This document shows positions 20,167 through 64,000 of a stretch of 64,000 nucleotides of DNA, one piece after another. The translations under genes were made by a program, and so were the position numbers. Numbering within the stretch: position 1 is the first letter of the stretch; the number at the start of each line of letters is the position of its first letter. Under the pieces are notes generated by a model, which was not told where the DNA came from, did no database searches, and saw only the letters and a program-made list of their open reading frames with translations. Source of the DNA: Escherichia coli (GTDB lineage: Bacteria > Pseudomonadota > Gammaproteobacteria > Enterobacterales > Enterobacteriaceae); assembly GCF_003334335.1 (NCBI RefSeq), contig NZ_QOWQ01000018.1; one strand, given 5' to 3'.

Positions 20167-21108
20167 TCAGAACAGATTATCAATGTTCATACTGTAGGTT
20201 TTGCTCACCTTGTCGCTTATCGATTTCATCTGCTGAATCATGTTGGTGAGTTTGCGGGCATAGTGAGGATCGGTGGCATAGCCCGCGTCCTGTAGGGCCT
20301 GCGCCCCCTGTTCCGCACTCGCGGCGGTCGTCACGGCGGCGTAGCGCGGGTTACGCGTTAACAGCCCAACGTAATCCGACAAGGCTTCCAGATACGAGCT
20401 GTAGACGCGAAACTTCGCTTTTACTTTCTTCGCTTCGCCGTTTTCATATTCAGTCGTGGTGATTTCAGTAACTGGCCCTTTCCAGTTGCCAGAGGCTTTG
20501 ACACCAAACAGGTTATAGCTCGGCTCGCCGTTTTCGCGGCGGATTTGCCGTTGCCCCCAACCAGATTCCAGTGCCGCCTGAGCGAGGATCAAATGATGTG
20601 GCACACCGCTTTGCTGGCTTGCCAGTTGGGCGGGCAGCGAGAGTTGCGCGAGGAATGCTTTACTGTCACCCGGCAGCGAATCATCGTAGTTACGTGGCAC
20701 GGCCTTTTGCACCAGCTGCGAAAGCGCCTGATTTTGATAACGCACCACAGTTTCGAGCGGGAATTTCATCGGTGCTGCTGGCGTGGACTCCTCTGGCAAT
20801 GGTTGTTCTGGCGTCATCTGTTTAACCATCATCTCTGCAAGCCCCAGACCTTTGCCCGCCGTCATCTGTTGGGCAATCTGCTGGTCATACATACTGGTAT
20901 ACAGGCGAGTGTGCTCGCTGCTGAACAGGCCATCTTTTGGTAAAGCGTCGCGCATGCTTTTCAACATCATCTGCACGAACATCCCTTCCACCTGACGGGC
21001 CACCGGACGGATATTTGCCGCCGGATCTTCGCCCGCTTTCGCCTTTAGTTCGTTGAGTGATTGCGCATCCCAGGCCGCACTTGCCAGTAGTTTGCTGTCG
21101 CTGATCAT
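20167..21108 (-). CDS. flgJ: Flagellar rod assembly protein / peptidoglycan hydrolase
   Basis: ORF 20167..21138; start placed at ATG 21108 ([16 protein letters not shown]..., 313 aa), overlapping the flgI stop as ATGA. Confidence 0.93.
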   Translation of the reverse strand: MISDSKLLASAAWDAQSLNELKAKAGEDPAANIRPVARQVEGMFVQMMLKSMRDALPKDGLFSSEHTRLYTSMYDQQIAQQMTAGKGLGLAEMMVKQMTPEQPLPEESTPAAPMKFPLETVVRYQNQALSQLVQKAVPRNYDDSLPGDSKAFLAQLSLPAQLASQQSGVPHHLILAQAALESGWGQRQIRRENGEPSYNLFGVKASGNWKGPVTEITTTEYENGEAKKVKAKFRVYSSYLEALSDYVGLLTRNPRYAAVTTAASAEQGAQALQDAGYATDPHYARKLTNMIQQMKSISDKVSKTYSMNIDNLF

Positions 21109-22205
21109 CAGATGATTTCCAGTTTTGCCCGCAGACATCCCGCACTTTGCATTGATTGCAGTATGGACATCAGATCCATCGGCGTAGCGCCCAGCGCATT
21201 GAGCGCGCGCACCACGTTATTGAGGCTGGCGCTGGAACGTACGCTTTGCAGCGAACCGCCGCTCTGGCGTAAATCGATCTGCGTTTGTGGAGTAACCACA
21301 GTCTGTCCACCACCAAACGGTGTATCTGGCTGGCTGACATTGGCCTGACGATTAACTGTTACTGAGAGATTCCCCTGCGCTACCGCGCAGCTGTCGAGGG
21401 TCACTTCGCGATTCATCACCACCGAACCGGTGCGCGAGTTAATCACTACTTTAGCGTCCTGCGGGGTGACATTAACCTGCATATTCTGAATATCGGCAAG
21501 GAAGCGGACCTGGGAACTGTTGCCACTCGGTACGCGCACCTGAATAGTCCGCGCATCTAACGCGGTGGCGCTGCCATATCCACGCACGCGGTTGATGGTG
21601 TCAGCGATTTGCTGCGCCATGCTGAAATCTTCGTCGTTAAGTTGCAAATTAAGGGTATTCCCGACGCCAAACTGGCTGGGCAATTCACGTTCAATAACCG
21701 CACCATTGGTGATCCGTCCACCGTTCAGTTGGTTAACCTGAACACTGCTACCGCCAGCGGAGGCTCCTGCGCCGCCAACCAGAATATTGCCCTGCGCCAG
21801 CGCATACACCTGACTGTCAACGCCCTTAAGCGGTGTCATCAACAACGTACCTCCACGCAAGCTTTTGGCATTTCCCATGGAAGAAACCACCACATCGATG
21901 GTTTGCCCCTGACGTCCAAACGGAGGAAGTGACGCTGTCACCATTACCGCAGCGACGTTTTTTAGCTGCATATTGGTGCCCGTCGGAACGGTAATTCCCA
22001 GCTGTGAGAGCATGTTATTAAGCGTTTGTGTGGTAAACGGCGTCTGGGTTGTCTGGTCACCGGTGCCATCCAGCCCCACCACCAGACCATAGCCAATCAG
22101 TGAGTTTTGCCTTACCCCCTGAACACTGGTGAGATCGCGAATACGCTCAGCCTGAGCCGCCGTCGTGACCAGTAGAAGAATTAATGCAGAGAGAAATTTA
22201 ATCAC
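21108..22205 (-). CDS. flgI: Flagellar P-ring protein
   Basis: ORF 21108..22208 opens with tandem GTG-GTG; the second gives [19 protein letters not shown] (365 aa) with a signal peptide. Confidence 0.93.
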
Positions 22206-22216
22206 CACAGCCTCAC

Positions 22217-22915
22217 TTACATTGGCGACAGGTTAAGGAAGAAACGCTGCAACCAGCCCATATTTTGCGCTTCGTTAATGTAGCCATTGCCTACGTATTC
22301 AATGCGCGCATCCGCCACCTGAGTAGACGGTACGGTATTGCTGCCGCTGATAGTGCGTGGATTAACCACGCCAGAGAAGCGAATAAATTCGGTACCCTGA
22401 TTAATGGCAATCTGTTTTTCACCCACCACATGCAGGTTGCCGTTGACCAGTACCTGGTCAACCGTCACCGTCAACGTGCCGCTAAAGGTATTGCTGGCAT
22501 TGGCCCCGCCCTTTCCGTTGAACGTGTTACCACCGGAGGCTTCGACATCGGCACGAGCGTTACCAAACAGCCCCTGCAAATAGCGCGGCACAGTATCAAA
22601 GCCAAAATTAGTTTTACCGTCACGGCTGGCATTCGCAGAGGAGCTTTTGCTGGCGCTGACGTTCTCCTGCAACACGATGGTCAGCGTATCGCCAATATTG
22701 CGTGGTCGACGATCTTCAAACAGCGGTTGATAGCCATAGTTAATCGGCTGAGCAGACTGGAAAATAGAACCGTTGGCGACGGGCGTCGGACCGGGAACCG
22801 GTTGTGCACTGGTCGCCCCCTGCACCAGCGGCGTGGAGGGTATCCAGGCGCAGCCGGTTAGTGAAAGCACCAACAAGCTGGAAATGGCATAAGTATGCGC
22901 AGCGTTTTTTTGCAT
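22217..22915 (-). CDS. flgH: Flagellar L-ring lipoprotein
   Basis: ORF 22217..22930; start at ATG 22915 ([22 protein letters not shown], lipobox), 232 aa. Confidence 0.93.
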
Positions 22916-22967
22916 GGCTATCATCTTCAAAAATCAGTAAACCGGTGAACCTGCCACCGGTTAAGCC

Positions 22968-23768
<801 letters not shown>

Positions 23769-60911: not shown

Positions 60912-60945
60912 GCCAGATTACAAGCGCATGTTATTGTTTAACATG
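60912..60945 (+). terminator. Rho-independent terminator of serX
   Basis: Hairpin aagcgcatgtt-attgttt-aacatgcgctt followed by a T-run, 7 nt after the tRNA 3' end. Confidence 0.8.
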
Positions 60946-61064
60946 CGCTTTTTTATTTATCCTTCCAGACAGTATGCCACCGGGTATGCCATCTGAAACC
61001 GGTTTGTATGAGCCGCGATCACATCTTATCGGACAATTTCCGATCTTTAAGCATACTGGCAAAG

Positions 61065-61910
61065 CTATACTGACAGCATGTCAGGATAGTGTTCTGCAAT
61101 AATATCATTCAGTCGCTCAACCAGTTCCGGTTTTCTGAACGTGATATACGCGGAGCCCTTCTTAAAGTATCTGATACTGAACATCTCATCTTCATAGTCC
61201 TCTTTCCCCTGAACAGACTGGATGTGCTCATCCAGATGAATGGTGATGTTTTCCCGATTGTCGGGGATCGGTTTGCCGCTGAACAGGTGCAGCATTCTTT
61301 CCAGGTCGGTAAGTCGATCTGCCTGTTGCCCGCTGTTCAGATGAAATCCCCACCGGTCCCACCTCACCAGATTGTTGACGATAATTTTACTGCCAAATTT
61401 ACAGGGTGAGTTGGTTTTGTAATTCCAGCTCAGCACTCTGAAGACGTTGATCACTCCTCGCTCAAACACGTCATCCTTATTCTGGTGCAGTTGCTCAAAT
61501 GTGCTCCAAATGTTCGCTTCACTGATTTCCGGAAAGTTATCGTACTCCAGTGAGCGGTACCATGTATCACGGGCCTGCGCATCCATTAATGACAGCATCC
61601 CGGAACGTTGCATCAGGCCACGCCAGATTTCGCGATCGAGATTGCGGGTGATGGCTTTCATTGCGGTTTCCGGTTTCTCCATGAGCCAGCAGCCGCAGCG
61701 AAAATCCTGTTTCATGGCCCAGTCCCGGGCGGTTTTACCGCCAATGCTTTCCGTCAGTACCGAGATTTCAGCCAGTTGCCGGATAAGTGTGTCGATTTGC
61801 AGCAGCGCACTCTTTCGTACAGCCAGAATGTGGCGGATACTGGTTGAGCAGATAACGTCCGTATGTCCGTTGACCAGTTCCGGGCGGGAGATTGTGATAT
61901 CTGACATCAT
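61065..61910 (-). CDS. Uncharacterised 281-aa island protein (possibly DUF4942-like)
   Basis: Intact ORF MMSDITISRPELVNGHTDV... with Shine-Dalgarno aaggaaaaacg before the ATG; no recognisable catalytic motif; family assignment from memory of island annotations, not searched. Confidence 0.6.
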   Translation of the reverse strand: MMSDITISRPELVNGHTDVICSTSIRHILAVRKSALLQIDTLIRQLAEISVLTESIGGKTARDWAMKQDFRCGCWLMEKPETAMKAITRNLDREIWRGLMQRSGMLSLMDAQARDTWYRSLEYDNFPEISEANIWSTFEQLHQNKDDVFERGVINVFRVLSWNYKTNSPCKFGSKIIVNNLVRWDRWGFHLNSGQQADRLTDLERMLHLFSGKPIPDNRENITIHLDEHIQSVQGKEDYEDEMFSIRYFKKGSAYITFRKPELVERLNDIIAEHYPDMLSV

Positions 61911-61991
61911 CGTTTTTCCTTTTGGTTTATAAACGAAAACGCCAGCCGTATTCAGGCTGGCGTCAGTGGAATGAAGTCTGGTGAGTAAGAC

Positions 61992-62189
61992 TCACCTGTT
62001 CTGTTGCAGAAGCTGCTGTTGGCGCAGGGTACGGATATCTTCCCTGGCCTGTTCAATGCAGGGCAGCAGTGCTGCTGAATCCGTTTTATCCTCATCGTTG
62101 TCGAAGATAATCCCTGATTCGCAGTCAATATTGTCCTGCAGCCACGCAATCAGAATATCCAGCGCCGTTTCTGTGGTTAATGATTTCAT
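61992..62189 (-). CDS. Small 65-aa island protein (possibly DUF957-like)
   Basis: ORF MKSLTTETALDILIAWLQDNIDCESGIIFDNDEDKTDSAALLPCIEQAREDIRTLRQQQLLQQNR, 16 nt downstream of the YeeW-like stop; acidic, helical; unsearched. Confidence 0.45.
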   Translation of the reverse strand: MKSLTTETALDILIAWLQDNIDCESGIIFDNDEDKTDSAALLPCIEQAREDIRTLRQQQLLQQNR

Positions 62190-62205
62190 GTTGTGAATTT
62201 ACGGG

Positions 62206-62694
62206 TTACCAGTCGAAAGTGGGGAACCCCGGCAGACATTCTGCGCCGGCGTCCAGATGAATGAGACTGACGCCATAACGCCGGGTGAGAGTGACGACCA
62301 GACGACGGAACGTTCTTGACAGGCCCAGGCGTTTAAGCCGCAGAACCGGGTACGACCATGCATCGGTACGTAACAGATAGCCGCTGCCTGTAAAATGAAT
62401 CCATTCTGTTTCGCCGTCGTCATTAGTCTGGTGTGACAGCGAGTACAGCCAGGCGTTGTCCGTTTCCGTGATATGTGCGGTACTGCAACGTATGCCGGTA
62501 AGGGTTGTTAACGGTGGTGGTGTACTGGTTGACTGCTGGTCGGATTTATCGACCACGCGGAGTGAATAACCGTTTTCAGAGACCTTGTTAATCAGTTCAG
62601 CGAGATTAACACCATCGACGTCAACGACAATGCGCCCCATGTTCAGCGCCTGCATGTTAATGCTGTCGGCTTCCGGCGTCAGGGAAAGGTTCAT
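62206..62694 (-). CDS. YeeW-like protein (DUF5983-type), full length
   Basis: 162-aa [57 protein letters not shown]...; its ATG overlaps the CbtA stop as ATGA; position matches yeeW downstream of cbtA. Confidence 0.6.
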
Positions 62695-63074
62695 TGTTTC
62701 GCCTCCTCCGGATGCTTGCCCAGGGTAATGTTATTTACCATTCTGTAATTGTCCCGGGTCATCAGGCCGGTCGCCCTGCGAGCCCGGAGAATATCAATGC
62801 TGTTGATTAACTGAGACGACGGGGCTCCTGCGCTGAATCCCGGCTGGTCAGTTCGTACCAGCACGTATTTTTCAACGAGAAAGTTCACCGCGTCACACAG
62901 TGAAATCCCTGCCTCAATATGCTGCTCAATCACACGTTCATCAGCGAACGGTGTGTCATTCAACGTAAGGCCATAGTGCTGGTCCAGCAGTCGGGTGAGC
63001 AGTGTCTGCCAGATTTCAACCGGAGACGGGCAGCGCGATGCCGCCCGTACGTGTGTGTCGGGTAATGTTTTCAT
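62691..63074 (-). CDS. cbtA: CbtA-family toxin of a type IV toxin-antitoxin system (YeeV/YkfI/YpjF-like)
   Basis: Start at ATG 63074 gives 127 aa [70 protein letters not shown]..., near-identical to remembered YeeV-family toxins. Confidence 0.9.
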
Positions 63075-63154
63075 ACTGAAGATTTTCCTGATATGCAGAT
63101 ATAAGAAATGGAAAAGTGGCGTGGCTGGTGAAAGCACCAGGCCGGAGCAGAAGG

Positions 63155-63535
63155 CTATTCCGGAGGGTTACTTTCCGTTTCGGTCGCAGGATAAACAGCC
63201 AGATAAACGTAACCACAGGAGCCGAGGGTGTCGGCATCGCAGGTCAGCCCTTTCGCATACAGCGTGACGGTATGCTGATGCCGGGGATTCAGTTCACCGC
63301 TGGTGAGCATGAGTTCCAGTTGTTTCATCAGCAGTGGAAAAGCCTGGTCCAGATGGTATGCATCCGCATTGCTGAACCGGCCTCTGATACCGGCGCGGTC
63401 TGCAAGGTAATGCAACCGGTTACCCTCCTGCACCAGACGTGCCCCGAAACAGGGCGTCACGGTGCAGGGCAGCCCCCACCAGGGGCGGTCTTTGTTGTCG
63501 TCGGGAAGCGTTGTCCCGGGGAGTGTGTCTGACAC
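63155..63535 (-). CDS. cbeA: CbeA-family antitoxin of a type IV toxin-antitoxin system (YeeU/YafW/YfjZ-like)
   Basis: Probable GTG start at 63535 gives [54 protein letters not shown]... matching the remembered YeeU N-terminus ([13 protein letters not shown]...). Confidence 0.88.
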
Positions 63536-63545
63536 GATAAAATCC

Positions 63546-63923
63546 TCACAGAAAATCGGTGAATGATAGTTTAACGATGACGGGGCAGCCGGCGCGCAGA
63601 CCGGCTTCGGTGAAGGTATATTCGTTGATGAGAAGGGCCTCATCCACAGCGGCGTCTGAGGTCAGCCAGTCGTACTCGTTTTCCAGTTGACGGTACAACC
63701 AGAAGGCCAGGTCGCGCAGGGCTTCGCTGACTGCGGCTTCCGCATCGGTTGTCATAGCCTGACCAGTCGGACTGTTCCGGGTGACGGTGATATCCATGCA
63801 GTACGGATGGCAGTAACGTCCCCGGTGGTGGATTTCAGCCTGCAGTTGCCAGAAGTTACGCTTCTGCACCGCCTGCAGGGCATCCGCGATACGATGAAGC
63901 TCACGGTCCTGCGGGGCATACAC
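63546..63923 (-). CDS. Hypothetical protein upstream of cbeA (yeeT/ykfH position); start uncertain
   Basis: 125-codon ORF opening with GTG at 63923 (an in-frame stop lies 9 nt upstream); internal ATGs would give 83- or 68-aa products; stop is 8 nt before the cbeA start. Sequence not recognised. Confidence 0.4.
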   Translation of the reverse strand: MYAPQDRELHRIADALQAVQKRNFWQLQAEIHHRGRYCHPYCMDITVTRNSPTGQAMTTDAEAAVSEALRDLAFWLYRQLENEYDWLTSDAAVDEALLINEYTFTEAGLRAGCPVIVKLSFTDFL

Positions 63924-64000
63924 CCATAAGCGCTAACTTAAGGGTTGAACCATCTGAAGAATGCGACGCCTCGGTGCCTCGTTAAGACGATGCCTCGCGT

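Follow-up and report, generated by a model that had tools for sequence, protein, structure and literature searches.

The flgI gene of the Escherichia coli DNA analyzed here, a stretch of 64,000 nucleotides hereafter called the window, opens with two consecutive GTG codons, and the second of them (22205..22203, minus strand), which yields a 365-residue precursor of the flagellar P-ring protein, is very probably the main or sole site of initiation. We infer this from the anatomy of the sequence, from database annotation, from the conservation of the start across species and from the statistics of Shine-Dalgarno (SD) spacing. The second GTG is favored by the RefSeq start, by its distance from the SD core, by its alignment with the conserved start codon of related genera, by the alignment with the 365-residue Salmonella protein and by the published lengths of the leader (19 residues) and of the mature form (346 residues).

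The gene is flgI of the E. coli flgB-L flagellar operon. Positions 21000..23000 are 100% identical to many E. coli chromosomes, including that of K-12 MG1655, in which flgJ, flgI, flgH and flgG are annotated. The order in the collinear K-12 region of RefSeq is flgG, flgH, flgI, flgJ, flgK, all on the minus strand, with flgI between flgH and flgJ. The flgI coding sequence, stop codon included, occupies 21108..22205 (-) and corresponds to RefSeq WP_000589326.1; the upstream gene of the same operon, flgH, encodes the L-ring protein and occupies 22217..22915 (-) according to RefSeq. The flgI product scores 469.4 bits against the NCBIfam model NF003676 (FlgI; cut-off 300), with residues 22-365 covering the full profile; as the profile starts at residue 22, in the mature region, it carries nothing on the N-terminus. 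Residues 1-365 align to residues 1-365 of chain 7bgl_a, the Salmonella protein in a solved LP-ring structure, with E = 1.3e-211, and 11 further PDB entries were matched. Salmonella FlgI (PDB 7bgl, 7clr, 7nvg and others) has 365 residues, as here, and aligns without gaps over 1-365, while PDB chain 9iyc_A (346 residues) aligns to residues 20-365.

On the minus strand, positions 22240..22190 read TTCCTTAACCTGTCGCCAATG TAA GTGAGGCT GTG GTG ATT AAA TTT CTC. The TAA is the stop codon of flgH (22219..22217), and GTGAGGCT lies directly 3' of it. The short gap after flgH holds the GAGG core of the flgI SD sequence (22211..22214 (-)). The first GTG (22208..22206) is a start-like codon one codon 5' of the annotated start and 8 nt from the flgH stop; the second GTG, the annotated and conserved start, is 11 nt from it. 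The initial annotation had placed a GTG GTG pair at 22203-22208 at the head of flgI, and the pair is indeed present there, on the minus strand, a point which had been left unstated. The open reading frame 21108..22208 (-) encodes 366 residues from the first GTG and 365 from the second, so that the first GTG adds a single residue, as had been expected, namely a valine.

When the reading frame is followed back from the pair, an in-frame TAA (22233..22235 (-)) marks the 5' boundary beyond which flgI cannot start. The eight codons between this stop and the pair (CCT GTC GCC AAT GTA AGT GAG GCT) include no start codon, and neither ATG, GTG nor TTG occurs among the 19 leader codons that follow the second GTG. 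The next in-frame start-like codons (22082..22077) lie within the mature protein, and initiation there would lose the signal peptide. One of the two GTGs must therefore be the start of flgI: they are the sole starts that retain the signal peptide, and an ATG option is absent. The claim that flgI initiates at GTG and has no ATG at its start is accordingly borne out by every in-frame codon from the upstream stop through the leader. Its description as a non-canonical start is correct as far as initiation at GTG is concerned, yet GTG is a normal minority start codon in bacteria and is used by 4 of the 66 complete genes in the window, the others starting with ATG (61) or TTG (1); in E. coli, ATG accounts for about 88% of the annotated starts (PMC9825163).

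Being the first start codon of the open reading frame, the first GTG is the one that a longest-ORF rule selects. A reading in which it is the true and only start, with a 366-residue precursor and a 20-residue leader as in the annotation of the UTI89 type, is nevertheless very improbable, in the first place because the SD spacing is too short: the GAGG core lies 2 nt from the first GTG and 5 nt from the second. The predicted duplex of AAGUGAGG with the 3' end of 16S rRNA has an energy of about -6 to -7 kcal/mol. As a local control, the RefSeq starts of the 66 complete genes of the window were used, with coordinates adjusted for an indel of 1 nt that separates the record from the window. In 30 of the 37 genes with a recognizable SD core the spacing is 4-7 nt, with a mode of 5 nt, and in none of the 37 is it 3 nt or less. 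The optimal distance between SD sequence and start has been given as 5-9 nt (PMC7264876); by the criterion of a canonical SD-led site (about 5-9 nt) the second GTG falls within the range and the first falls outside it.

A second complementarity to the 16S rRNA was observed at the pair itself. The segment GGUGAUUA (22199..22206 (-)) runs from the end of the first GTG through the second GTG into the codons after it, and it is complementary to the 3' end of 16S rRNA (AUCACC) with a predicted energy of -9.7 kcal/mol, stronger than that of the GAGG core. The GGTGA motif of GGUGAUUA is part of an extended SD sequence, GAGGTGA, upstream of the start in related genera.

For a comparison across the order, 57 Enterobacterales loci were collected from species-representative genomes with a degenerate DNA pattern for the N-terminus of mature FlgI. 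The set is without S. enterica subsp. enterica, E. albertii and E. fergusonii, its closest outgroups being Salmonella arizonae and two divergent lineages labelled E. coli. Codons were numbered backwards from the mature Glu, which places the second GTG at -19 and the first at -20. In 20 species whose junction has the same layout, flgH stop followed by SD sequence and start, codon -19 is ATG; these include Kluyvera, Siccibacter, Superficieibacter, Silvania and several Enterobacter and Escherichia sp. isolates. Salmonella arizonae and the E. coli lineages have GTG at this codon. Codon -20 takes 11 forms at the 21 junctions of the 20 ATG species and Salmonella arizonae (AAC, ACC, ACT, ATC, ATT, CAC, CCA, CCC, GCT, GTT and TAT), none of them a start. 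Directly 5' of codon -20, 14 loci have an in-frame stop, in most cases the TGA within GAGGTGA or GGGGTGA, which blocks extension of the open reading frame. The order of SD core, 5 nt and start is conserved in its spacing throughout the junctions with the shared layout, and a GAGG or GGGG core at the SD position is common to nearly all related junctions.

These alignments speak against the first GTG as the only start in two further respects, since the aligned codon is a non-start in the relatives and is directly preceded by an in-frame stop in the 14 loci; the Salmonella protein of 365 residues likewise aligns with the shorter form. Outside E. coli a start codon at -20 was found in only two loci, both of a different layout: Entomohabitans has ATG at -20 and ATC at -19, and Tatumella sp. 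JGM118 (L033) has ATG ATG. Salmonella arizonae (L022) resembles E. coli in having GTG at the aligned start codon, with the SD core equally distant, and differs in that the preceding codon is TAT rather than GTG; it has an in-frame GTG of its own two codons upstream (GTG TAT GTG). These junctions suggest that the first GTG most likely arose in the E. coli lineage by a chance substitution, at a position that is spacer elsewhere.

Several loci in the collection are of interest for other reasons. Another in-frame pair of start codons near the flgI start occurs in Photorhabdus loci (e.g. L003, L014), which read ATG GTT ATG. Enterobacter sp. CC120223-11 carries two loci (L030, L031) with a FlgI mature N-terminus in one genome. 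A longer, different leader (MKKHSILFF..., MKHIFMTL...) without the flgH-stop junction is found in several loci including L030; the loci of Citrobacter amalonaticus (L054) and L008, L021 and L049 are noted here beside L030/L031. The loci with the different leader probably belong to second flagellar gene sets of the lateral type.

RefSeq begins flgI at the second GTG in K-12 (WP_000589326.1), in UM146, which is a B2 strain, and in a strain of O157:H7. The comparison with a curated FlgI N-terminus that the initial annotation had proposed therefore comes out in favor of the second GTG in three lineages, which also weighs against the first as the only start. The assignment of a 365-residue product to the second GTG, also made there, agrees with the RefSeq product of all three and with the entry FLGI_ECOLI. 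In an exact-sequence look-up the 365-residue form was found as FLGI_ECOLI and the 366-residue form as FLGI_ECOUT, the latter on 362 contigs. From the second GTG the protein matches FLGI_ECOLI / WP_000589326.1 of E. coli K-12 exactly, and the coordinates of the coding sequence coincide with 21108..22205. FLGI_ECOUT (E. coli UTI89 and others) is the same gene and the same sequence, with 366 residues and a start one codon earlier; its presence in the databases is the other point in favor of the longer precursor, and its start agrees neither with RefSeq nor with the conserved position of the related genera, nor does it have the usual SD spacing. Curated use of the first GTG, the outcome that was to count against the second, is thus absent from these three RefSeq genomes and present, in name only, in FLGI_ECOUT. 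The start at the first GTG is a minority annotation. A literature search on the flgI start codon or GTG returned nothing relevant.

The choice between the two codons has no effect on the mature protein. The leader, as read from the translation, has a basic N-terminal residue, a hydrophobic core and an Ala-X-Ala site (AQA), and the mature protein begins at Glu20; the Sec signal peptide thus comprises 19 codons (22149..22205 (-)), with cleavage before Glu20. E. coli FlgI has been described with a cleavable leader of 19 residues, export by Sec and a mature form of 346 residues with Glu1 and Ile3 (PMC2885626), and 19 plus 346 residues give 365. Salmonella FlgI also has a cleavable signal peptide and is exported by Sec (PMC8298488). 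As the leader is cut after AQA, mature FlgI is identical whichever GTG is used. The earlier opinion that a difference of one residue is trivial was well founded, for the extra valine lies in the discarded leader and leaves the mature protein unchanged. For the same reason, data on signal-peptide cleavage, which had been suggested as a check, and N-terminal proteomics alike cannot discriminate between the first and the second GTG, the leader being removed. N-terminomics (TRAINSPOTTER) typically misses the start of a protein whose signal peptide is cleaved off (PMC13245402), and the tables of that study contain no entry for FlgI.

Published data on initiation exist from INRI-seq, a cell-free form of retapamulin profiling on synthetic mRNA fragments, in which the annotated start of flgI is the second GTG (PMC9825163). 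[quoted passage not shown] Since the isolated flgI fragment initiates in vitro, initiation is not strictly dependent on the translation of flgH. The peak window of INRI-seq, 12-18 nt from the annotated start (±3 nt), covers both GTGs (PMC9825163), and it is compatible with either.

Use of both codons, in which a small share of the ribosomes, such as those that re-initiate after flgH, would start at the first, would give precursors of 366 and 365 residues and the same mature FlgI. This is unlikely, even though the two are valid in-frame start codons 3 nt apart, the INRI-seq peak fits either, and the flgH stop is merely 8 nt 5' of the first, which a re-initiating ribosome could reach earlier. 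Closely spaced alternative starts are also frequent in E. coli, with 37 cases that differ by 5 residues or less (PMC13245402). The pairs of alternative starts reported from Ribo-RET, INRI-seq and TRAINSPOTTER are likewise nearby in-frame starts that are hard to separate by footprint (PMC13245402, PMC9825163); flgI differs from them in that its products would be identical after leader cleavage and that dual use is here only putative. The 2-nt SD spacing of the first GTG, which has no counterpart among the 37 window genes and lies outside the 5-9 nt optimum (PMC7264876), argues against its use beside the second, as does the fact that none of the related genera sharing this junction conserves a start at its position. 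Moreover, as dual use would be without functional consequence, nothing would select for it.

The occurrence of the pair is not beyond chance expectation. Of all trinucleotides in the window, 4.8% are ATG, GTG or TTG, and a start-like codon in frame and adjacent to the annotated start was found in 5 of the 66 RefSeq genes (flgI, bssS, msyB, mdoG and clsC). The GTGGTG hexamer occurs 61 times in the window, where 31.7 copies are expected from shuffles, and five more copies lie inside flgI. The other adjacent pairs are ATG ATG in bssS (37525, +), GTG ATG in msyB (44299, +), ATG ATG in mdoG (49145, -) and ATG ATG in clsC (52185, -); these four genes carry a one-residue ambiguity of annotation like that of flgI.

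Within E. coli the junction is nearly invariant. The 33-mer 22221..22189, which comprises the SD sequence, the spacer, both GTGs and the first codons, was found exactly in 5412 of 5426 complete E. coli genomes; the other 14 carry a single mismatch, which in one case lies outside the core. In E. coli SCPM-O-B-8794 (L010), which is 89.7% identical over flgH-flgI, no mismatch occurs from -54 to +21 around the first GTG. This mismatch-free island measures 74 nt, equivalent to about 22262..22187 of the window, and substitutions are dense in the signal-peptide codons. In another locus (L023) only 2 mismatches occur within 120 nt on either side of the site, against a divergence of 7.6% overall. Two origins are conceivable for the island of SCPM-O-B-8794: the initiation region may be under constraint, or recombination may have produced a mosaic.

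The near-invariance across the 5426 genomes, the island in a lineage labelled E. coli that is otherwise 10% divergent, and the GTG of Salmonella arizonae would all suit a selected regulatory device, in which GTG GTG acts as a weak or redundant start that sets the output of FlgI relative to FlgH. We give this explanation almost no credence. The 20 related species with the same junction have a single ATG after a variable codon, recombination mosaics explain the mismatch-free island equally well (cf. L023), and adjacent start-like codons occur in the window at chance frequency. When the 101 nt around the flgI start were folded as RNA, the structure was no more stable than that of shuffled sequences (z = 0.21), and it showed nothing meaningful that would favor either codon.

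The flgI region is identical to K-12 (21000..23000); the window as a whole differs from it. Up to position 60915 the window shows 8 substitutions (at 684, 2301, 10735, 18408, 29157, 34385, 34641 and 60639) and one extra T relative to the MG1655-derived record NZ_CP032667.1, the extra T (37256) belonging to a run of Ts that lies closely downstream of dinI. The match to K-12 ends directly after the 3' end of a tRNA-Ser (...CCTCACCGCCA). Beyond this tRNA the K-12 record contains ycdU, a pseudogene and IS3, and the window (60916..64000) contains genes for DUF4942, DUF5983, a CbtA-family toxin and a YeeU-family antitoxin, as annotated in other E. coli. The segment 60916..64000 is the edge of an island integrated at tRNA-Ser, and the window is not K-12.

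For initiation at the second GTG the following course is proposed. The GAGG core 5 nt upstream would position ribosomes on this codon, and ribosomes that finish translating flgH 11 nt upstream of it probably assist; we infer this translational coupling from the anatomy of the junction, in which the flgH stop lies 8 or 11 nt upstream of the two GTGs. The precursor of 365 residues would then be exported and its Sec signal peptide of 19 residues removed, leaving the mature P-ring protein of 346 residues. Any initiation at the first GTG would add one valine to the discarded leader and would not affect the mature protein. At the other end of the gene, the stop codon of flgI (TGA, 21110..21108) and the start codon of flgJ (ATG, 21108..21106) share one nucleotide in TGATG (21106..21110 (-)), a classic coupling overlap.

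One speculative role for the pair was considered, namely that a redundant tandem start permits efficient re-initiation from flgH to flgI despite a weak SD sequence of 4 bp and so helps to match FlgH and FlgI for the 26:26 LP ring. We consider it quite improbable; if it were true, the near-invariance of the E. coli junction would reflect selection. The tandem GTG at flgI is ordinary and already known, and it matters very little. Its practical effect is that entries for one gene give 365 or 366 residues and that residue numbering is off by one between them. The start of flgJ is extended in the same way by the longest-ORF rule, to an upstream ATG at 21138 (-) (323 residues, against 313 as annotated), and that of flgH to an upstream TTG at 22930 (-) (237 residues, against 232 as annotated). 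The longest-ORF rule over-extends genes, and flgI, flgJ and flgH are all cases of this in the window.
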